Source: Eledone cirrhosa
Taxonomy: Eukaryota
Direction of reading: 5' to 3'
Assembly (NCBI GenBank): GCA_964016885.1
Contig: OZ024743.1
Span: 28,210,001 to 28,274,000, forward strand
Length of the DNA: 64,000 nucleotides
This document shows positions 15,796 to 64,000 of this stretch, in pieces (within the stretch, counting starts at the first letter, position 1; every line of letters begins with the position of its first letter). Under the pieces are notes generated by a model. It saw only the letters and a program-made list of their open reading frames with translations. It had not been told where the DNA came from and did no database searches. A program made the position numbers and the translations under genes.

Positions 15796-15874
<79 letters not shown>
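15796..15874. repeat. (TATC)n microsatellite, 5' flank of Tx1 element A
   Basis: Read directly; the repeat resumes at 21655 after the element. Confidence 0.95.
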
Positions 15875-16092
15875 CGATGGACACATGTGCTGAGCTCGCT
15901 CGGTAAGTTTTTGTTTAAATTCATACGGAAATTGTAAACTGTAAACTTTCATTTTTGTACCATTTTGTAGAGGGACTGCCAGGTCAAATTTTGATCTGGT
16001 CGGTCTCTCAAAATATTCTGCGCCTTTGGGCGAAATAGTATTGTGAACATTTTATCTTTCGAAAAACTTCGAAAAACCCTATTTTGAGAAAA

Positions 16093-16272
16093 ATGGCTGA
16101 AGCATCTTCACCATCAATCAAAGAAGGAAAGGGGAAGTCATACTCACAGCTTCCCCCTGCCACTGTCACAGCAGCAGATGCCAAAGGCAGAGGTCAGAGA
16201 GAGGAAGAATTGTCTTCACCTGTTGACCGACCACTAGATGTAGCCACAACTACACAAGAATTTGAAAACAAC

Positions 16273-16303
<31 letters not shown>

Positions 16304-17955
16304 GCAACAATAAAGACAACAAAAACAACAACAACACAAACGTCACAAGTATCCACACACCAAACGAGAAAGACAACAACAACAACAAAGATGAAAACAA
16401 CTCAAACGACGAGAAACAAAACAATACTAAAATCCAAAGCGAAAACAAAATATCTTTTGCACAAACGGCTAAATTATCAGTCGCGTATGTGCTTGAAGAT
16501 ATTTCAAAAGCAAAAGAAATGCTGGAAAAAGCCAAGAAATATGTATCTTTTGGCGAAAACGGTTCGTTTTCTATACATTCACCTCCAGAACTAAAAAAAC
16601 AGACGGAATTACGAACTGTCATATTCCGAACAATTTTAAATAAAACAAAGAAACCAACGCAACCATCTCAAGCCGAAATTCAGTTAGTCTTGAAAGACGC
16701 GATGAGCGACATCACTTTTATACAAAAGGATAAACTCTATGGGAGTTTATCCATATTGATGAAAGACGAATTGGCGGCGAAAAAATACTCTGTGTCGCCA
16801 ATTCGGTCCACACACTACACCTTCTTCCCCACCTACATGGGTAAAAAAACCCAGAGGATATGGATAACCACCATCACCCCAAACATAAACTACTGGCGGT
16901 TACTAACCGGCTTCCTCAATTTAGACGAGGACAACCTCATTTCAATAGGGAAGGCATCCGGCGACGCGTTCAGTGGAACGAGCATCGAAGTTCTGACCCA
17001 AATAAGGCCAGAACGCATCGCCCAAATCCCTGAGCGCGTCATGCTGGATGACCGTACCCACCTCAACATTATTGTGGAGGGTAGCGTCCCTCCTGTTTCC
17101 TCTGTGGCAATAGAGGTCACCTGAGGGCTGCCTGTCCCCAGCTCACACAGAAAAAAACACTGCTACCAACACCAACACCGCCCCAACAACAACAACAAAA
17201 ACAACCACAACAACAACAACAACAAAAACCAACAACCCCACCACAACCACAACAACAACAACAACAACAAACACGTGAAAAAATAACACAGAATACCGTC
17301 CCACCCAATCCCTCCCCACCCAAAACAAATACAAAAACACACACACCGCAAACACTACCAGAAAACATACCCCTCCCACCCAACAAGGAAGACGAACCCC
17401 TTTCGTCGCAAGACGAAAAAGATCCCTTCCAACAAGTAAAAAGAAAGAAGAGGAGACGCACCACAGACACACATGTTAACTTTAACCCCCCCCCCCAAGA
17501 GAACACAAACTACACACAAACCACCCCTCCCTGTCACACAACACTATTTGCTACACAAAAAAAGACCTTGCAATATACATACATGAACACAGACAACAAA
17601 GAATTACGGAAAACAATTTCAGCAAACCCTTCGGTCCAAACCGAAGGGCCTAACTTTAAAACTGCTGTGGGACTACCTCATTTAAAAATGATAAAAGTCC
17701 CAATGCACTTGTACAAAACACTGAAAATAAATTTCACGGAGGACGTGCCCCCCCCCCCCCCCTGCGCCAAACCAATTAACCGCGTCCTCCTAAAAAATTC
17801 CCCCCCCCCACCCAGACATCCACTCAACCACAAACACCCCAACCCCACAACACACCGATGCCCCTTCACTTCCACAAACCACCACCCCACCCAACAACCC
17901 ATCCCCAACCAGCATGGAAATTGAGCGGCCCGTTTCCCGGGACGCAGAGAGGTAA
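16093..17955 (+). pseudogene. Tx1 ORF1 (gag-like, zinc knuckle), frameshifted
   Basis: ORF 16084-17124. After a 1-nt shift near 17083 it continues RPSCFLCGNRGHLRAAC (CX2CX4HX4C), then a Q/T/P-rich region ending MEIERPVSRDAER*. Confidence 0.8.
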
Positions 17956-17979
17956 GTGCCTTTTCTCCTTACCACCAAC

Positions 17980-20900
17980 ATGGCTGTGCTAAGAGTAGGG
18001 TGTCTAAATGCGCGTGGCCTGGGCTCGTCTTGGAAGCAAGCAATGCTTCTAAATGACCTCAGGTCACAATCTATAAATGTGATGGTTATCTGCGAGGCCC
18101 GGATCAGCAGCATGCGACAGCTAGCCCCCACCTTTGACGACTTTGAGATGCACGCATCTCTCTGTCAGCCCGGAGGTGGGGGTGGGGTTGTCGTTCTGCT
18201 GCAAAAACATATGGGCCTTGCAACACAGATAGTTCACTTGGACCCAGGGGGTCGACTGGTGGTGCTGGACCTTGGCAGTGGTGAAGGTAGAGCCTTTAGG
18301 CTGGTAGCCGCATATGCCCCTTTTGGGACTGAGCGGTCCGACTTTTTCCAGCGTCTGGAGTCTTTTAGTGGGGGATTGGAATGGTATCCTGGATGCACGT
18401 TGGGACTATGCAGGGGCATGTCCCGATAGGGAGGGGTGCAACAGCCTCAAGGGGTTACTCGGCCGATTTGACCTGGCCGATAGATTTCGACTAGATTTTC
18501 CGACGGTGCCAACCTGGTCTTGGTCAAATCGCAGCGGATCATCTAGGTCGTACCTAGATAGATTTTTAGTTAGAAATAAGGACAGGGACTTTTTAAGTTG
18601 TCCAGAAATGCTCATGGTTGGCTATTCAGACCACAAATTGGTGACCTGCATGGTCAACCTTGATAGAACGCATAGACAGGGCCCCGGTTACTGGAAGCTC
18701 AACTTCTCCTTGCCGGCAAGTAGAGCCTACAGGGATCGGATTAGTACGTTAGTTAAGGAACGGTTGACTGGAGCGATCGTCAACAGCAGGTGGTGGGTAT
18801 CTCTAAAGAGAGAGATTAGAGTAGTCTCGATAGAATTTAGTAAGGTTCTAGCTGCGGATAGGAATAGGAAGGAAAGGGAGCTAATACATAGAGTAGAAGA
18901 GGCAATTAGAAGCGGCGACGTGGCCAGAGTGCTAGCGTCGAGAACGGCTTTGAGCCAGTTTTTCGACGCGAAGCACGAAGGCTGCGTTGTCCGAAGTAAA
19001 ATACGTGCTCTAGGGAACGAGGGGACCAAAGCTGTTAGCTGGGCCCGCGTGACAGAGGCCAACAGTGGAACTAAATCCACCATCCGGTCTTTGCGAGACC
19101 TGGATGGACGGACGATTCTTGAGCCTAAGCAGATGTGTGAGGCCTTTCAAAGGCACTTTGCCCGACTGTTCGGGAGGGGCGGGGAGCCGGTTGGGAACGT
19201 GGACTTCGGTCCATACCTCGACGGCCTGCCGCGCCTCTCGGACAGGGAGGCGAAGTCCTGCGAGGAGCCGATTTCGGCCGCTGAGATAGAGGACGTGCTG
19301 AGCCAATGCGGCAAACGCAAATCCCCGGGTCTCGATGGTCTTCCTTACGAATTATATCTAGCTATGCCGGACTTGTTCCCCGATCTCCTCGAGGCGGTCT
19401 ACTGCAACTGGCAACAGAACGGGAGAATTCCCTGTACTGTGACCAAGGGCCTAGTCACGCTAGTGAGGAAGGACGAGAACAAGGGGGACGAAATAAGTAA
19501 CTTCAGGCCCATAACTCTGCTAAATACAGAGTTACAGATTTTGGCCAAGGTGCTAGCAAAGAGGTTGGCGCTTGTCGTGGGCAACCTGGTGGGAGATGCG
19601 CAGACATGCGCTATCCCGTCCAGGTCCATCCATGACAACCTCCACCTCATGCGATACATCATAGAGAGGGTTGGGAACGAACCCGGCTTTGGTGGGGCTC
19701 TGATCAACTTGGATCAATCTAAGGCGTTCGATAGGGTCGACCATGGTTACCTGGATGCGGTGCTAGCGGCGGCAGGCTTCGGACCCGTTTTCAGGGGCTG
19801 GATCACTGCTATGCACAGCAGCCGCATCTGCTCTAGGGTCAAGGTGAAAGGCTACCTCTCGGAGCCGTTCAAAATCGCGCGGTCCATCCGACAAGGGTGC
19901 CCTCTCTCCTCCCTTCTGTATGTGTTGACTCTCGAGCCACTACTGCGGAAGTTGGAGTTGTTGCAGGGCATCCATTTGGAACCGGGATTGCGGAAAGCGG
20001 TGTCGGCCTACGCCGATGACGTGACAGTAATGGTGTCGACGGCCTCCGAAATCGAGGCGGTCGGCACCTTACTGGAGGAGTACGAAAGGTTCACAGGGCT
20101 AAGCTGAACCGGGACAAGTCGATCGGTTTGCAACTCGGCACGTGGAGGGGCAGACCGATGCCCTCCGATGGCGTCGTCGGACGCTGGACGGAGGGCCCGG
20201 TGAAGTTGCTCGGGGTCTGGTTCGGACCGGACCTCCAGGTGGAGAAAAACTGGGCGGAGGTTACGAACAGGGTGTTTGCACTGACCCAGAAGTGGGCCAG
20301 TTGCAAACTATCCCTGAAAGGTCGGGCGGAGGTGGCGAACACCTACATAGCGCCCGTCATCTACTACCGCCTGACCGTAGTGCCCTGCCCAAGGGAAACC
20401 CTCACCAAGATGGAGCGCGCACTCTTCCAATTCCTTTGGAAGAGGCGGGCTCCTATGGTGAGGAGATCCATCTGCTGTCAACACCCTTCGAAAGGAGGGC
20501 TGGGGATGCCGTGGCTAATGATGCGTAAACACGCATTAAGGCTACGGCACCTCTACGTATTCCTCACCGGTCAACCGGTGTGTGCCTCGTTTGTGAGACG
20601 AACCTTTCCCAGACTCGTCTCACTCACCGAGCTGCAATCCTGGGTCAAGCAAAGACCGAGAAAACTGGGCGCCTGGCACACTGAGTGTGCCCAGGCGCTC
20701 ACCGCCCTATGGCAGGCGGATCCGGTTATCAGTGGAGACTCCACCGCAACATTCTATAGGGGGCTGGTACGCAGCAGGTGCGACGACGCCCTCGGAGAAG
20801 CCCTAGACATGGAGGAGGACGAACTGGCCAGCCTGTTCGGTAGGACATTCAGCCCGGGACCTATGGACAACTTCCAGAAGTCCCTGGCCTGGCAGTGCTA

Positions 20901-21390
20901 CCGAGGGGCTTTACCCGTTCGAGAAAGGCTCTACAGACACGGGCGCCCGGGTAGGGACCCCGCCAAAAAGATCTGTCCCAGATGCGTGTGTGACGAGGAA
21001 ACCGTTGCACACGCATTGGTACACTGCTCGGGCGTAGCCGATCTGTGGGGCTATGTCGAACAACTGCTGTCAAGGGTGGGACCGATCCGGTTGACCACCG
21101 AGTCTATTGTAATGATCAAGCCGCCTCCCCCCTTCAAAGATGAAGCAGAGGCGGTGTTTCTGTGCGTAATAGCCATGGCGAAAGAGGTTGTATGGTGGAC
21201 GCGTCTGAAAGGACTGAGGTCAGGCACCTTTCTCTCTGGCCAACAACTGGTCCGTTTCTTCCGATATCATTTCGGAAGAAGGATCAGGATGGAGAGAGAG
21301 GTGCTGCACCCCAGTCGTTTTTATGAAAGGTGGGTGAAAGTGGCGAGAATGGCCCGTGTGAATGGGCCTTCTCTTTACATAAGCCTGTAG
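17980..21390 (+). pseudogene. Tx1 ORF2 (APE endonuclease, reverse transcriptase, C-terminal Zn), about two frameshifts
   Basis: Motifs LNARGL, GDWN, SYLDRF, YSDH, KSPGLDG, RPITLLN, DQSKAFDRV, RQGCPLS, YADD, CPRC..H..C. Breaks at ~18365 and ~20100. Confidence 0.92.
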
Positions 21391-21656
21391 GTGGAAAGGA
21401 GGAAGGAACGAGGGAGCACCCCCTCTCTGTGCTCCTGAGGAAAAGGGTTGCACACTTTTTTCGGGGGTGTGTGCGACCCCCCAAGGCGCCTCCTCTCTAT
21501 TGAGGATTTTGTTATAAATTTTATTTTTTGTTATATCTTATTTTATTTTTATATTTTGTTATTGCCTCCTCCTTATTGAGGACGCCTTTTTGTGTAAACT
21601 CCCCCCTTTGTACTTGTCCCACTTTTGATGCCCTAGTGGCAAATAAAAGAAACATA

Positions 21657-55597: not shown

Positions 55598-56144
55598 GAT
55601 TTCATTTATTAGCAACGAGGGCCGACATGTAGGGGACAATACAAAGACGGACAGTGGGGGGTTTACAATAAGGTCGAGTAAAAGTGCACACTGGCAAGAC
55701 TTATTTAACAATGAAGATATAAATATATAAAATAAACTATGCATAAATATAACAAAATAAATTCCCCGATAGGGGGTGGACGACCCTGGGGTGACTCGGG
55801 TAACCACTAATCCTGAACCACCCTGCGCTTCTAGGGCACCCAGGGAGAGCACCCCTCTCCTCAAGTTAGCTAGCCTATAGGCGCATGGTCAGAGTAGGCC
55901 CATTCACACGAGCCATTCTCGCCACATTCATCCACCTTTTAGAAAATGTACGGGGGGGGGGCAGCACTTCTCTCTCCACCCTCACCTTCCTTTCCAGGTG
56001 AAACTTGAAGAAGTTGATGAGAGATTGGCCGAAGAGAAAAGTGTCTGTCTTCAGTCCTTTTAATCTGGTCCACCATATAACCTCTTTCGCAACTGCCACC
56101 AGACAGAGGAAAATGTCCTGCTCTTCCTGACCTAAGGAAGGCGG
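55598..56144 (-). mobile_element. 5'-truncated Tx1 copy (family of element C) flanked by (ATT)n
   Basis: AVAKEVIWWTRLKGL..RVNGPTLTMRL* plus a 3'UTR ending AATAAATGAAATC(ATT)n. Confidence 0.9.
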
Positions 56145-56579
56145 AATAATAATAATAATATATATTTTATATATATTTACCCATTACAATCGCTGTTTAC
56201 ATATTATTATTTGAAGAAAAGAAACAGACATAGACCGGAAAACAGTTTATTTCGGGGGATAAGTTCTGTTTAATCAAAGATCCGACTAATTATTATGCAA
56301 TCATCTCTGTGGCTGAAGATGTGAAAGGTGCATATATATATTTCAAATATTTTTCCAATACAATTCTCTTTTTTTTACATTTCGGTCGATTGTGACTAAA
56401 TTTCAGATTTTGAAAGGAAAATGGACAGTTGAAAGATCACTTCTCTCTCCCACCACCACATTCACAAGCACTTCCTCACACATTCACACCAGTAAATCCC
56501 CAATCTATTTTTAGACTACTGTCACTGACTGCTACCTACCTCCCTTCTCAGTGTCTAATGTGTGGGTATATATATATAC

Positions 56580-59500
56580 CTTCTCTCTCCACCCTCACCT
56601 TCCTTTCCAGGTGAAACTTGAAGAAGTTGATGAGGGATTGGCTGAAGAGAAAAGTGTATGTCTTTAGTCCTTTCAACCTGGTCCACCATATAACCTCTTT
56701 CGCAACTGCCACCAGACAGAGGAAAATTTCCTGCTCTTCCTGACCTAAGGAAGGCGGTGGATCGATCTTCACTATGGACTCGGCCGATAGCCGGATTCGT
56801 TCTACACGCGACAGTAGCTGTTCGACATAACTCCACAAGTCAGTAAGGCACGGACATTGGACAAGTGCGTGCAGAACGGTTTCGTCGTTCTGTGCGCATC
56901 TTGGGCAGGTCCGTCTGACAGCACTTCCGTGCCTGTAGAGTTTATCCCGAACCGGCAGTACCCCTCGGTAACACTGCCAAGCGAGGGATTTCTAGAAATT
57001 GTCCATCGTCCCCGGCTCAAAAGTCCTCCGGTACAGACTGGTCAGTTCGACTTCGTCGAGGCCCAAAGCTTCTCCGAGTGCGTCATCGCACTTGCCCACC
57101 ACTAATCCTCTATAGAACTCGAGAGTGGAAGTTCCACTGATCGCATTGCCCGCTTGGTAGAGGGTAGAGAGTGCCAGGCAACATTCCAGGTACCAGTCAC
57201 CCAGTCTCGGTCTCTTCTTGACCCAGGACTGCAGCTCAGTCAAAGAAATGAGCTGCGGAAAGGCCCGTCTGATAAACGGCGACCACACCTGTTCACCGTT
57301 GAGGCAGAATATCTGGAGATGTCTCAGCCTCAACGCATGTCTGCGCATCATTAGCCACGGCATGCCAAGCCCTCCGCGTAGAGGGTGCTGGCAGCAGATG
57401 GACCGCCTCACCAACGGAACTTGTCCCCTCCACAAGAATTTGAAGAGGAGCCGTTCCAGCTTGACGAGGCGCGGACGGGGGCAAGGCACGACGGTCAGGC
57501 GGTAGTAGATGACAGGCGCGATGTACGCATTCACCACCTCCGCGCGACCTTTCAGTGATAGCTTCCTCCCAGCCCATTTTTGGGTGAGACTGGCTACTCT
57601 GCTCGTTACCTCGTCCCAATTCTTTTCCACCTGGAGGTCTGGTCCGAACCAAACCCCGAGCAACTTTACCGGTCCGTCCGTCCAGCGCCCCACGACGCTG
57701 TTGGACGGCATGGGCTTGCCTCTCCAGGTTCCGAGCTGCAAGCCCACCGACTTTTCCGGGTTAAGTTTGGCTCCTGTCAACCTTTCATATTCCTTCAATA
57801 AGGTGCCGACCACCTCGATTTCTGAGGTGTTCGACACCATCACGGTGATGTCGTCCGCATAAGCCGACACCGCCTTTCCACGTCCCGGTTCGAGCGGGAT
57901 GCCCTGCAACAGCTCCAGCTTCCGCAGTAAAGGCTCGAGAGTCAATACGTACAGAAGGGAAGAGAGAGGGCACCCTTGACGGACCGATCGGGAGAGCCTA
58001 AATGGTTCCGAGAGGTGGCCATTAACCTTGACCACCGAGCATGTGTCGTTGTGCATTGCAACGATCCAGCTTCTAAAGACAGGGCCGAAGCCAGCTGCTT
58101 TGAGGACAAACTCCAGATACCGATGGTCGACCCTATCAAATGCTTTCGATTGATCTAAATTGATCAGGGCCCCACCGAAGCCAGGTTTACATCCTACCCT
58201 CTCTATGATGTATCGCATGAGGTGGAGATTGTCGTGTATGGACCTGGCTGCGATTGCACAAGTTTGCGCCTCCCCAACCAAATCCTCGACGACAAGCGCC
58301 AATCTCTTTTCTAACACCTTGGCCAAAATCTTAAACTCTGTGTTGAGCAGAGTTATGGGCCTGAAGTTGTCTAATGTATCCCTCTTGTTCTCATCTTTCC
58401 TTATCAGCGTCACCACTTCCCTGCTCACAGAACTGGGAATACTCCCATTCTGCTGCCAGTTGCAGTAGAGTGCTTCGAGGAGTTCGGAGAACATGTCTGG
58501 CATATTTACGTAAAGCTCGTAGGGCAGGCCATCCAAACCGGGTGACTTGCGCCTCATGCAGCCGACAAGGGCGTCCTGAATTTCGGCTGAAGTAATCGGC
58601 CTTTCGCAGCGCTCAGCGTCGACCGTCGAGATGCGCGGCAAGCCGTCAAGGTAGGGACTGAAATCCGCTACTCTCTCTGACTCGCCACTCTCTCTGAACA
58701 ACCGAGCAAAGTGCTGGCGAAAGGTCTCACACATCCGCTTGGAATCGCTTATCTCGTGTCCGTCTCGGTCCGCCAAAGACCGAATTGTGGTTTTATTACC
58801 ACGCTGCGCCTCCACCACGCGGGCCCATCGAACAGCTTTAGTTCCCTCGTTTCTCAGCGCACGCGCCTTAGTTCTGACAATGCAACCTTCGTGTTTGGCA
58901 TTGAAGAAATGGTCTAATGCCATTCTCGCCGCTTGCACGTCAGTTGCGATGCCACTACAAATAGCCTCGTCTAACTTATCTACCAGCTCCCCTTCCTTTC
59001 TATTTTTCTCTAACGCTAGTTCTTTGCTGAACTCTGTCGAAGTTACTCTAATCTCTCTTTTGAGAGCCACCCACCATCTGTTGTTGATGATCCCCCCTAT
59101 CAACTTTTGCTTAACTAAATTGTTGACTCGGTCCCTGTAAGCCTTACGTGCCGGAAATGACATGTTCAGCTTCCAGTAACCCGGTCCTAACCTACGCGTT
59201 TTATTTAGGTCGACCGTACAGATCACAAATTTGTGATCTGAATAGGCGACCGTTTTAAAAAGTGGACAGCCCACACTATTTCTATCTATTTTCCTAATGA
59301 AGATCCTGTCTATATACGATCTAGATGACCCCATTCGGTTGGTCCATGTCCATACTGGCACAGTGGGGAAATCTCGTCGATACCTGTCAGACAGTTGGAA
59401 CTGGCTGAGTAGGTGCTTGAGGCTTTTGCACCCCCCGCTCCTATCGGCTACTCCCACACAATCCCAGCGTGCGTCTAAGATGCCATTCCAGTCCCCCGCT

Positions 59501-62120
59501 AACAGTAAAGGGCGAGACGTACCCAGAAAGGTCTCCAGGCGCCTAAAGAAGTCAGGTCGTCCGGCCCCTGTAGGGGCGTAGACGGCCAGCAGTCTAAAGG
59601 CACCACCTTCGCTACTGCTCACATCCAAGACCACCAACTTACCGTCCGGGTCCCGGAAGATCGACCTTATCTCGAGATCCAGTCCTTTCCTAAACAGCAC
59701 TGCTACCCCACCCCCCATTCCCGGCCTGCTAACAGATGCGAAGATCTGATAGTCGTCGAAAATGGGGGTAGTGCGCGCGTGTCGGAAATTCTGGTCTCGC
59801 TTACGGCAATCACATCGATTTCCAGCGACCGGAGGTCGTTGAGCAGGCGACCCTGCTTCCAGGGTGACCCCAGGCCGCGAACATTTAAACTTCCTACTCT
59901 TAATATGGCCATATTGGTAAGCTAAGAGAGAGAGAGGGAAGGTTTACTTACCTCCCGGGTCTTGTGAAGGTCGGGTGGTTCGACCTCCATGGTTGGTGGG
60001 GTTTCTTTTGGGAACCTCTTTAAAAGTCTTGATGTAGGTTTCACATTCGGGGTTCCCACGTCTTGAGGAAAGCTCTCTCGAATTTCTTTGAAGGAATTGA
60101 GTGACATTCGGACCAGAAGCAAATCTTCTGGCACGCAAAATGTGCTCATTTCAAAAATCTCCCCCTGTTTGAATGTCCTCGCTTCGCGCTAACAGGGCCA
60201 TCAGTTTATCGTTGGCCCTTCTGACAAGCACGAAGTTTTTAACATTTTGTTGGTGTGGTTTTATTTGTTTTCGTTTTGGCGAAGGTGGTGGCGATGGTTT
60301 TGGTGGTGTTGTTTCGGGTATGTCTATGTTTGTTGTAGGTGTGGTGTCTGCAATTTCAGGTATTTGTGTGTTTATTTGTACTTGTGTTTGTTTACGTTGT
60401 TTCCGTTTCGGGGATTGTGGAGGTGGTGTCGATGTTGCTGTTGGTGATGATGTTATTGGGGAAGTGTTTGCGTTAGTGGTGTCTGTATTTTTTGTTGTGT
60501 GTTTTTGTGTTTTGTTAGGGCTTTTTTTTGTGAGTTTTCTCTGTTTTTTTGCACTTTTGGGTTTTCCTTCATCTTCGCTGCTGGAAGACAAAGGGTCTGT
60601 GTCTGTGAGTGTCTCTGTGTCTGTGTGTGCGTTTATTGTTTTGTCTATGTGTATAATTGGGGGGGGGGGGGGAGCTTTCCTAATTTTCTCCTTGGATTGG
60701 TTTTGGTGTTGGTGGTGATCCGGCTGCTTTTTATGTTGGTGTCAGTGTTTTTGTTGATGTTGTTTTTGGTGGTGGTGGTGGTGCAGCTTTCCGTGCTGAC
60801 ACTGGCGTTGGCAACAAAGGTGGTTTGCGACCCCCTGCCTTTTTGCGCTGAGGGCAGAAGGCTTGAAGATGCGTTGCTTCCCCGCAGACGAAGTAGCATG
60901 GCCTTCTTCCGTCAATCATTAGTTGGATTGTTGTCCCGTCCTGCAGGCGGGTAAAATCCGGGATGTTATTCATATCCTCCGGTTTCATTTGGAGAAGAAT
61001 CTCCAAATCCATTCCGGACCAGTCCTCTCTCTCTGTCCTTTTGATGTCCAGGAGGGTAGTGTCTGTCCCCTCCTCGATTACGCATCCCAGCAGCCACCAT
61101 ATGTTCATTCCTGGTGGGATGCTGGGAATGCGTACCTTCACTGTCCTTTTACCCATATAGGACGGATGCATGATAATGCGTTCCGTTCTGCAGGGGGTCA
61201 CCGATGCTTAATAGCGAGGGCCTCGGTTTTGAACAGTACCGAGATGGTACCGAACTGTTTGCCTCTTGCTTTGTACTCTATGTTACTTCCCATGTTCTCC
61301 AAAGCAGCCTCTACCTCTGCTTGGCTCGCAAGTTCCACTTTTCGTGTCTGCACCGAAATACATCGAAAGAACACCGTCCTCCTTTGCATGGCCGCTATTG
61401 CCTCGTCCGGGATGGTCAGGTTTGCCCAGGACTTCTCCCGTTTAATTAGCCTCCACGCTTTGGCCAACTGTTCGTCTTTATCGCTAATATCAATATCAAT
61501 ATTCAATAAGCGCTTTGTTTTTGCTGCTGCAGCAGCAAATGTGGTGTTTCTGATGCTCTTATTGTTGTTGTTGTCATTCTTGCTGTTGTTATTGGTGTTG
61601 CCACCGCCATCCTTGTTTACATTGAAGCTTTCGGTGTTATTGTCGTTATTGCTCTGAGTTGTTGTTGTTGTGGTGGTGGTGGTGGCGGTGGTGGCGGTGG
61701 CAGTGATGTCGTTTTCAAATGATACTGCTGCTATCACAGTAGGTTGTGACGGTAGCTTTTGAGTTTTGCCTTCACATTCAGTAGAGTGGAAGACAGGCAT
61801 AACTGTAGCCGTCGTCGTCGTGGTGAAATCTACAGTGGCTGCCGTTAAACTTTTGACCTGAACGTTGTTTACCGTTTCAAGGTCGAACATTTCCATAATT
61901 TTCTTTTGGTGGGAAGTGATTTTTTTCGAAGTTTTTAAAAATAAATCTGAATATTCGGGCTTAAAGCCCGAATATTGAGAGGTATCCTTCTCTTTAAATC
62001 AAGATGTTTACCTTAAGTTTCGTTAACGACAAGAAAATACAAAAAATGACACTTTAAAACAGCTTAAAGTTACGAACCTTTTCCCCCGCAGATTTGTACT
62101 GTCTTCACACATGTGCGGCC
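56580..62120 (-). mobile_element. Tx1-clade L1 (element C), complete 5' end but missing 3' end
   Basis: ORF1 pieces 61896-59922. ORF2 starts at 59912 with a 908-aa open stretch (59718-56992) and a CAG>TAG stop at 56992. (ATT)n at the 5' end. Confidence 0.93.
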
Positions 62121-62149
62121 ATAATAATAATAATAATAATAATAATAAT

Positions 62150-62433
62150 GCTTTCTTTATTAACCACAAGGGTTTACACAAAGTAGACATTAAGGACAGT
62201 ACAGGACAATACTGGACGGTACAAAAGGGCATTTCTGCGTGTAAAAAAAAACAAAAAAAAACAGAGGATGTAATAATAGAACAATGAAAAAACTCCTCAG
62301 TAAGGGGGAGACTTCAGAGGGACATTCGTGGAGAAAGCCCATTAAAAAGCCACAGTGACCCTGACCACGAGGGCAAGTGCCCTCTCCCAGTTTTCCACCT
62401 TTAATTTACAGACACATACTCAGAGGCCCATTC
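62150..62433 (-). mobile_element. Short 5'-truncated copy of the element B family (3'UTR)
   Basis: Matches 40543-40815, with (ATT)n on both sides. Confidence 0.9.
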
Positions 62434-62465
<32 letters not shown>

Positions 62466-62467
<2 letters not shown>

Positions 62468-64000
62468 TTTCTTTATTGGCTACAAGGGCTGACATCAAGA
62501 AAAACATTACAGACGGCACAGGACGGTACAGGGCGGTACGATGTGGGTTTTGTGCGTGTAAATATTTTTATTATTTATATAAGAAAAGAAGAAAAAAAAG
62601 ACATATTAACATATATATATATATATAAACAATGAAAATGAAAATTGAAACAATGAAAAATTCCCCAATAGGGGGGAAACCCCCGCGGGTTACTCCTGGC
62701 GAAAACCACACAAAAGACCACGGCCACACTGACCACCAGGGCAAGCGCCCTCTCTCAATTTTTCCATTTCTCAAACTACAGACGTATATTCAGAGTGGTC
62801 CCGTTCACTCGGACCATTCTCGCTACATTCACCCACCTTTCAACAAACTTGCGAGAAGGCAGCCTTGCCTCTCTACCCTGATTTTCCTCTTCAAGTGAAA
62901 CTTGAAAAAGTTAATTGGGGATTCGCCGAAAAGGAAAGTGTCTGTCTTTAACTCTTTCAACCTTGTCCACCACACAATCTCTTTCGCCATGGCCACCAGG
63001 CAGATGAAAACCGCCTGCCCTTCCTCCTCGAAGGAAGATGGCCAGACCATCTGCACAATGGACTCAGTCGATAACCGGATCAGCCCTACACGCGACAGCA
63101 ACTGTTCGACATAGCTCCACAAGTCAGCAATGCTTGGGCACTGAACGAGTGCGTGCACGACTGTTTCGTCTCTCTGCGCGCATCTCAGACAGGCTCGGCT
63201 GACGGCACTTCCGTTCCTGTAGAGCTTATCTCGAACCGGCAACGCTCCCCGGTAACACTGTCCTCTATAGAACGTCGAGGTGGATGTTCCACCTATACTG
63301 GTGCCCAGCTGGCAGAGGGCAGTGAGCGCCTGGAGACATTCCAGTTTCCAAGCGCTATCCCTCGGTCTTTTCCTAACCCAGGATTGCAGCTCCGTCAAGG
63401 AGACGAGCTGTGAGAAAACGTGCCTGGCGAACGGCGACCACACCTGTTCACCGTCGAGGAAGCACCAGCTCATGTTTGCGCATCATCAGCCATGGCATGC
63501 CCAGTCCTCCACGCAACGAGTGTTGACAGCAGATGGATCGTCTGACCATGGGAGCACGTCCCTACCACAAAAAGCGGAAGAGGAGGCGCTCCATTTTGAT
63601 GAGAGTTTGGCAGGGGCAAGGGACGATGGTGAGGCGGTAGCAGATGACGGATGCGATGTACGCATTAGCCACCTCCGCCCGGCCTTTCAGGGACAGCTTC
63701 CTCTCGGCCCATTTCTGAGTGAGGGACGCCACCTTGCTCGTCAACTCGCTCCAGTTCTTCTCCATCTAGAGGTCCGGTCCGAACCAGACCCCGAGTAATT
63801 TAACTGGTCCTTCCGTCCAACGCCCCACGACGCTGTCGAACGGCATGGACGGTGCCGAGCTGCAAGCCCACCGACTTTTCTTGGTTTATCTTTGCTCCTG
63901 TCACCGCTTCGTATTACTTGAGAGCGGTGCCGAGCATCTGGACGTGTCTGGTGCTCCATACCACCACGGTGACGTCGTCGGCGTAAACCGACTCGGATTT
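62466..64000 (-). mobile_element. Further Tx1 subfamily (element D), 3' part, runs off the window
   Basis: YADD at the window edge, EKNWSELT, MAKEIVWWTRLK, and a distinct 3'UTR ending CCCTTGTAGCCAATAAAGAAATC(ATT)n. Confidence 0.92.

Follow-up and report, generated by a model that had tools for sequence, protein, structure and literature searches.

How a bicistronic long interspersed nuclear element (LINE) balances its large need for the product of the first open reading frame (ORF1) against a rare ORF2 product is only partly understood. We examined this question in a 64,000-nucleotide stretch of Eledone cirrhosa DNA (GCA_964016885.1, contig OZ024743.1, positions 28,210,001 to 28,274,000, forward strand), hereafter the window. 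It holds three Tx1-like LINEs, denoted as A, B and C, and an initial annotation reported a U1-complementary 5' splice site (donor) at the ORF1/ORF2 junction of each. Since LINEs copy themselves via RNA, a working intron would be lost at once and an unused donor would be costly. What, then, is a donor doing at this junction? As described below, a whole Tx1-like LINE clade has conserved this 5' splice-site sequence at its ORF1 stop, under constraint at the nucleotide level, while its use can be proposed only with graded confidence.

A conserved donor sequence at the ORF1 stop

The sequence AGGTAAGT lies at 17950-17957 on the forward strand in A, and at 44246-44253 and 59946-59953 on the reverse strand in B and C, respectively, as the initial annotation had placed it. 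The first intronic G is 28 (A), 38 (B) and 39 nt (C) upstream of the ORF2 ATG, in agreement with the reported range of 28-39 nt, and a pyrimidine tract follows the motif in all three elements. The ORF1 TAA is indeed inside the motif in A and B. The different phase described for C holds for the window copy, a member of subfamily C2 whose ORF1 reads across the motif and stops at TAG 59922-59924, but not as a trait of C as a whole, because other C subfamilies use the third phase. Similarly, A, B and C are distinct families as claimed, but they are homologous members of one clade (ORF2 amino acid identity of 67-76%) rather than three independent origins, and the motif shared through their common ancestry is retention, not convergence. 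By raw count, the motif is no more frequent in the window than chance allows (5 matches where 2.2 are expected, with at least 5 in 6 of 100 shuffles), so the case for the motif rests on its position.

To follow the motif across the 3.0-Gb genome, we selected 150 loci by ORF2 alone, taking the best 30 of 150 listed matches for each of five ORF2 N-terminus searches; a few of them may be one place fetched twice. An exact GGTRAGT was located within 60 nt before the ORF2 ATG in 124 of the 150 loci, compared with 73 of 7050 control windows from the same loci. The remaining loci comprised 22 with one mismatch, 3 that were 5'-truncated below the motif and 1 with a deletion. In 600 kb of tiles taken without selection, 10 matches were obtained, two of which were weak, belonged to other elements and were dropped; among the 8 ORF2 starts of the clade that were left, 6 had the exact motif, 1 carried a change at -1 and 1 read G/GTAGGT. 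Across the subfamilies, G/GT(AA/GA/AG)GT was present at the ORF1 stop in 12 of 12 junction variants from 8 families, of which F, G and H are single copies each, so the conservation extends well past the window. No motif-mutant sublineage stood out among 30 mutant copies (identity of the top pair, 0.97). Outside the clade, the motif was within 60 nt of none of 9 ORF2 starts from 17 metagenome loci with distant L1-type elements (25-37% identity), which are algal-looking; two further metagenome matches were spurious.

The alignment of the 12 variants over the ORF1 tail and spacer contains six invariant columns, and five of these are the G, G, T, G and T of the motif at -1, +1, +2, +5 and +6, the sole invariant block there. 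Positions +3/+4 are restricted to AA, GA or AG, positions -2/-3 are free, and the base at +7 is always a purine (11 of 11 variants). As a neutral yardstick, 86 of 295 four-fold degenerate ORF2 sites are invariant over seven subfamilies. ORF1 crosses the motif in phase 2 in A, B, D1 and G, with its stop (TAA, TGA or TAG) inside the motif, in phase 1 in C1, the C-intermediate, D2, E and H, with the stop at +6 to +8, and in phase 0 in C2 and F. By our count, these states need at least four phase changes on the tree, or five when the single-copy F is included. Considering that the motif has outlasted these changes and all three stop codons, it has been selected as nucleotides, and the nucleotide-level constraint suggested earlier is borne out by this independence together with the donor-like profile. 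The chance that the four non-stop positions would be fixed is about 0.006 (our own product of base-specific four-fold invariance), even before a donor is required. The fixed GT, -1G and +5G correspond to the consensus of U1-type 5' splice sites, and the 5' end of the U1 small nuclear RNA is, to our knowledge, universal. Taken together, the sequence evidence for selection is strong.

Near the donor we also observed a start-like ATG-GA(A/G) pair (17914-17922 in A), which lies 23-49 nt before it in A, C, D, F, G and H. The pair is in frame with ORF1 in A, C and D; in B1 it is the start of a short ORF that is out of frame.

Possible uses of the donor

We lean tentatively, and at a little less than an even chance, towards a U1 site at which the replicating RNA is not spliced and which likely protects the full-length transcript against early polyadenylation within its A-rich ORF1 (39% A). 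The U1 particle would bind the junction donor and, once bound, repress premature cleavage and polyadenylation within ORF1; an occasional splice at the donor would be compatible with such a role. Binding itself is likely, judging from the donor profile and the splice-site consensus. The protective role is the least certain part and is proposed by analogy with the Arabidopsis element EVD, whose conserved donor binds U1 and represses premature termination of the unspliced RNA (PMC5580714; here and below, statements on cited papers refer to the parts of their text at hand). The donor overlaps the stop presumably because TAA, TGA or TAG provides half a donor at the first point without coding constraint. 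Six of eight subfamilies (A, B1, B2, C1, C2 and G) have an AATAAA at a distance of 250-580 nt upstream of the ORF2 ATG, with the signal missing in one of four C2 copies. Within ORF2, neither poly(A) signals nor donors were depleted when compared with codon shuffles.

Might the motif instead be a stop codon in an inherited context, functionless and kept by descent alone? All families belong to one unsaturated clade (four-fold identity between the main groups of 0.53-0.60), and the algal-looking L1-type loci lack the motif, as this explanation would have it. However, the four positions outside any stop codon are fixed while the aligned flanks vary, bases that once formed the stop are retained where the phase has shifted, and the fixed block equals a donor, so that we regard descent alone as very improbable. 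A selected element that is not read by U1, whether a transcription-factor site in the DNA or a re-initiation signal or hairpin for ORF2 in the RNA, with a chance resemblance to a donor, is unlikely, though less so. The donor in the human L1 5' untranslated region (UTR) is kept owing to an overlapping RUNX3 site (PMC5860796), the constant purine at +7 would suit such an element, pairing of the pyrimidine tract with the GG and the purines upstream is predicted for 13 of 13 folded variants, and the E spacer holds a near-complement of the motif. On the other hand, the motif varies by donor rules, with three common donor hexamers and free -2/-3 positions. The hairpin was rejected as a shared selected structure, since only 4 of 13 variants (C1 and three E copies) had a fold z-score below -2.5 and native arms pair no better than swapped ones (median permutation p of 0.21). 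Read-through of the stop was rejected as well, because ORF1 and ORF2 share a frame in just 3 of 10 representatives. As a separate observation, spacers of the E family (e.g. L224, L296 and L298) carry a near or perfect complement of the motif and are predicted to form a 9-bp stem that would bury it.

Splicing offers two further explanations. The initial annotation had proposed that introns of 42 (A), 53 (B) and 30 nt (C), ending at the first downstream AG, fuse ORF1 to ORF2 in frame. These spacings are correct, and the first AG is in frame with ORF2 in the A, B and C2 representatives; among subfamilies this applies to A, B1, B2, C2 and D1, and D has a canonical-looking acceptor 7 nt upstream of the ORF2 ATG. 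However, the first AG is out of frame in the other five of ten subfamilies (C1, the C-intermediate, D2, E1 and E2), where the value for C1 comes from a second copy because the other had a mutated Arg codon. The sister subfamilies D1 and D2 have the same acceptor in different frames, and the C acceptor is absent from C1. The acceptor of A and B is the AG of ORF2 Arg5, and all-AGN usage is common anyway (27 of 56 invariant Arg columns). Since a fused RNA would still code for ORF2, it should be able to make copies of itself, but searches of A, C1, C2 and D turned up none that lacked the intron. In addition, ORF2 keeps its own start context (AAC/ATG-type, AA at -3/-2 in 11 of 11 variants), as would be expected of an ORF with its own start. 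We therefore rejected an in-frame fusion by removal of 30-58 nt as highly improbable. It is more conceivable, although still on the unlikely side, that the donor is joined to an acceptor far downstream, whether in ORF2, in the 3' UTR or in host sequence beyond the element, which would yield an ORF1-only mRNA while the unspliced RNA serves as ORF2 mRNA and template. Whatever the phase, the donor is found right where ORF1 ends, as would suit a dispensable tail, and Gag-only spliced RNAs of Ty1/copia elements give a precedent (PMC5580714; PMC3735527). Two pyrimidine-rich YAG sites in ORF2 (nt 415 and 2807) are common to seven subfamilies, while at least two such sites arose in 12 of 1000 codon shuffles. 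With either candidate acceptor in ORF2, however, the extension is 1-19 or 205-1006 residues depending on the phase, and neither yields one product; that no acceptor does so in all phases we count for the unspliced U1 site. No acceptor common to the 3' UTRs was recognized by eye.

The 5' UTRs bear on distal splicing too, since an intron there would make ORF1 a true exon. A GT resembling a donor occurs at +30 to +57 in six of seven 5' UTR types (+79 in G, which shares the 5' UTR type of D2) and is followed by a first AG 60-68 nt further on, when AGs are counted from 40 nt. The shuffle probability of such a segment is about 0.2 each and 5e-5 jointly, with the range chosen afterwards and with UTRs that may be distant homologues. 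Single 5' UTR donors are within chance (P of 0.05-0.65) and E1 has none, which weakens the case. The T-rich segments ending in AG are at 15903-15970 of the window and in loci L244, L239, L238, L234, L289 and L318. An exon-intron plan can be drawn from these features, with a 60-68-nt 5' UTR intron, a donor at the ORF1 stop, and an uncopied ORF1-only mRNA beside the unspliced RNA for ORF2 and template; we consider it possible but doubtful. If true, an active L1-type element would obtain its ORF1 excess by a two-pool strategy like that of retroviruses or copia elements.

Pattern searches for spliced retrocopies gave a single match for A, which is a point mutant, while the ORF1 end was present in 266 copies (A being the family for which the total was counted), 23+7 matches for C1, all point mutants or small indels, and 0 for both C2 and D. 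In contrast, about 2% of full-length human L1 elements are spliced copies (PMC5860796), and this difference speaks against distal splicing; within the reach of the patterns, the lack of any spliced copy also counts for the unspliced U1 site. For removal of the A 5' UTR segment there were 2 matches, neither spliced, and all 18 A 5' ends in the fetched loci were unspliced; either the segment is not spliced, or the spliced RNA also lacks ORF2 and hence goes uncopied. When contigs from four sequencing runs of unrecorded kind were compared with element A, none of the 15 joints listed, out of 155, fell at the donor, which is uninformative either way. In one of these runs (X4), depth over 15874-21656 climbs steeply at the 3' end relative to run X1; X4, its kind unrecorded, may be poly(A) RNA. 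Separately, upstream breakpoints within 10 nt before the ORF2 ATG were seen in 3 of about 33 cases among the 150 loci (L053, L069 and L266) against about 0.2 expected, in a range chosen afterwards, and a stop of reverse transcription in the spacer is possible.

Several points weigh against the unspliced, U1-protected transcript that we prefer. D2 and E keep the motif without an AATAAA in the 1 kb upstream of the donor. In every variant the exon would end before the ORF1 stop, and intron-like segments are present in six 5' UTRs, both of which fit real splicing. The splice patterns missed exons starting with GT (C1) or with G (most A copies and C2), and a lack of spliced retrocopies is expected if the spliced RNA is without ORF2 and the 3' tail. 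Furthermore, an unused consensus donor holds an mRNA in the nucleus (PMC4380460), which would be a cost for a LINE RNA that needs translation. U1 binding without splicing and an ORF1-only mRNA from a distal acceptor, both offered as alternatives in the initial annotation, are thus the leading candidates. U1 protection and distal splicing are not exclusive, and the two may coexist in these elements as both do in EVD.

Elements carrying the motif

The coordinates of the three elements and their features are listed in Table 1. All three window copies are broken, with an ORF1 frameshift near 17083 in A.

Table 1. Features of the Tx1-like elements in the window
Feature	Position	Strand	Details
Element A, full-length copy, very young Tx1-like LINE family	15874..21653	+	inserted in (TATC)n; frameshifts in window copy
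A 5' UTR: second G/GTAAGT at +30 and 68-nt AG-free T-rich GT..AG segment (predicted intron)	15903..15970	+	
A ORF1	16093..17955	+	616 amino acids in intact copies; one putative CCHC knuckle; 39% A; stop TAA 17953-17955 within motif
AATAAA in A ORF1	17726..17731	+	about 225 nt upstream of donor; in 4/4 A copies checked
A junction motif G/GTAAGT	17951..17957	+	ORF1 phase 2
A spacer: pyrimidine tract and CCAAC start context	17958..17979	+	
A ORF2: APE endonuclease, RT (reverse transcriptase), zf-RVT	17980..21390	+	1145 amino acids in intact copies; broken by frameshifts in window copy
Element B (subfamily B1), decayed full-length copy	40543..46406	-	inserted in (ATT)n
B junction motif G/GTAAGT	44246..44252	-	phase 2, holds ORF1 TAA; ORF2 ATG begins 44213
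Element C (subfamily C2), decayed full-length copy	55598..62120	-	inserted in (ATT)n
C junction motif G/GTAAGT	59946..59952	-	phase 0; ORF2 ATG begins 59912

The elements have the L1-group layout of two ORFs, with an N-terminal APE endonuclease, an RT and a C-terminal zinc domain in ORF2. Pfam matches to ORF2 were Exo_endo_phos, RVT_1 and zf-RVT, the last just under the cut-off, and the closest solved protein was human L1 ORF2p (E 2e-48), with R2 at 6e-19. A CCHC zinc knuckle in ORF1 is a feature of the Tx1 clade; the zf-CCHC match here (E 0.0034, 17.8 bits) is below the 20.8 cut-off. Microsatellites flank the insertions, (TATC)n for A, D and G and (ATT)n for B, C and E, in line with the target-sequence preference of the Tx1 clade (PMC4494074). 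No match in protein searches with the element ORFs carried the name Tx1, and the label is consistent with the ORF2 domains and microsatellite targets. Among named proteins, the nearest comes from Argonauta hians (67% over the RT region), and sister-clade proteins at about 40% identity exist as protein records. No ORF1 homologue was found in other organisms. Family A is very young, its ORF1 end being common to the 266 copies and its ORF2 intact in many, and D2 presents a similar picture; such young families run to over 100 near-identical copies, and ORF2 is intact in many of them.

The window and related copies exhibit several other arrangements. B2 (L239, L241 and L242) is likely a recombinant, whose 5' UTR and part of the ORF1 tail are as in E2 (L298) while its junction and ORF2 are those of B. 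A G run at about nt 180 of ORF2 in B and C copies (about 44010 and 59715 in the window) is frameshifted in many otherwise long ORF2s, by slippage or assembly error. Elements have inserted into one another's microsatellite tails, which gives rise to head-to-tail arrays and nested 3' fragments (62120-63800; L112/L113, L033, L046 and L050). At 47508-50933 (+), an unbroken ORF of 1141 amino acids encodes an RT and a C-terminal motif resembling a restriction-like endonuclease, with a partial repeat at 51355-51936; we take this element to be likely of R4/Dong type. A fragment at 27385-27849 (+) resembles, by eye, a Penelope-like GIY-YIG endonuclease.

Comparison with known systems

Conserved donors that steer structural-protein output are already known in Ty1/copia elements, and what would be new here is a donor at a LINE ORF1/ORF2 junction. 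A literature search of titles and abstract beginnings found no report of such a donor, with Repbase entries, subscription papers and supplements outside its reach. A selected donor at the ORF junction of young, active families points to a deliberate use of U1, convergent with plant Ty1/copia, and the motif offers a single 7-nt target for mutation and a single junction to seek in RNA data. The HIV-1 major donor is an example of U1 action independent of splicing. Telescripting and 5' splice-site-dependent nuclear retention (PMC4380460) likewise involve consensus donors that act on polyadenylation or export without intron removal, as proposed here; they have been described for host mRNAs and retroviruses, whereas the present case is a LINE, for which the literature search returned no account of such a donor under selection.

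Human L1 (PMC5860796) is also an L1-clade element with a conserved donor, and the copies left in the genome by its spliced RNAs can be counted. Its donor, however, is in the 5' UTR and ascribed to the RUNX3 site, whereas here the donor is at the junction and spliced copies were not found. Kibi and Koshi (PMC4494074) and the L1-Tx1 families with activity in Octopus vulgaris (PMC13282606) are, like our elements, animal L1-type LINEs with an APE-RT ORF2 and microsatellite preference; in the parts of these papers at hand a junction donor is unmentioned, and 'splic' is nowhere in that of PMC13282606. A close parallel in arrangement comes from Arabidopsis EVD (PMC5580714) and barley BARE1 (PMC3735527), in which a U1-type donor is conserved where the structural part of the coding sequence gives way to the enzymatic part; the EVD donor serves both to produce a Gag-only RNA and to keep the unspliced RNA from terminating prematurely. 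While EVD and BARE1 are long terminal repeat (LTR) elements with one gag-pol ORF and a mapped intron, the element here is a two-ORF non-LTR LINE with a donor overlapping the ORF1 stop and known from DNA alone. As such, this LINE may work like an shGAG-type system without being a member of it.

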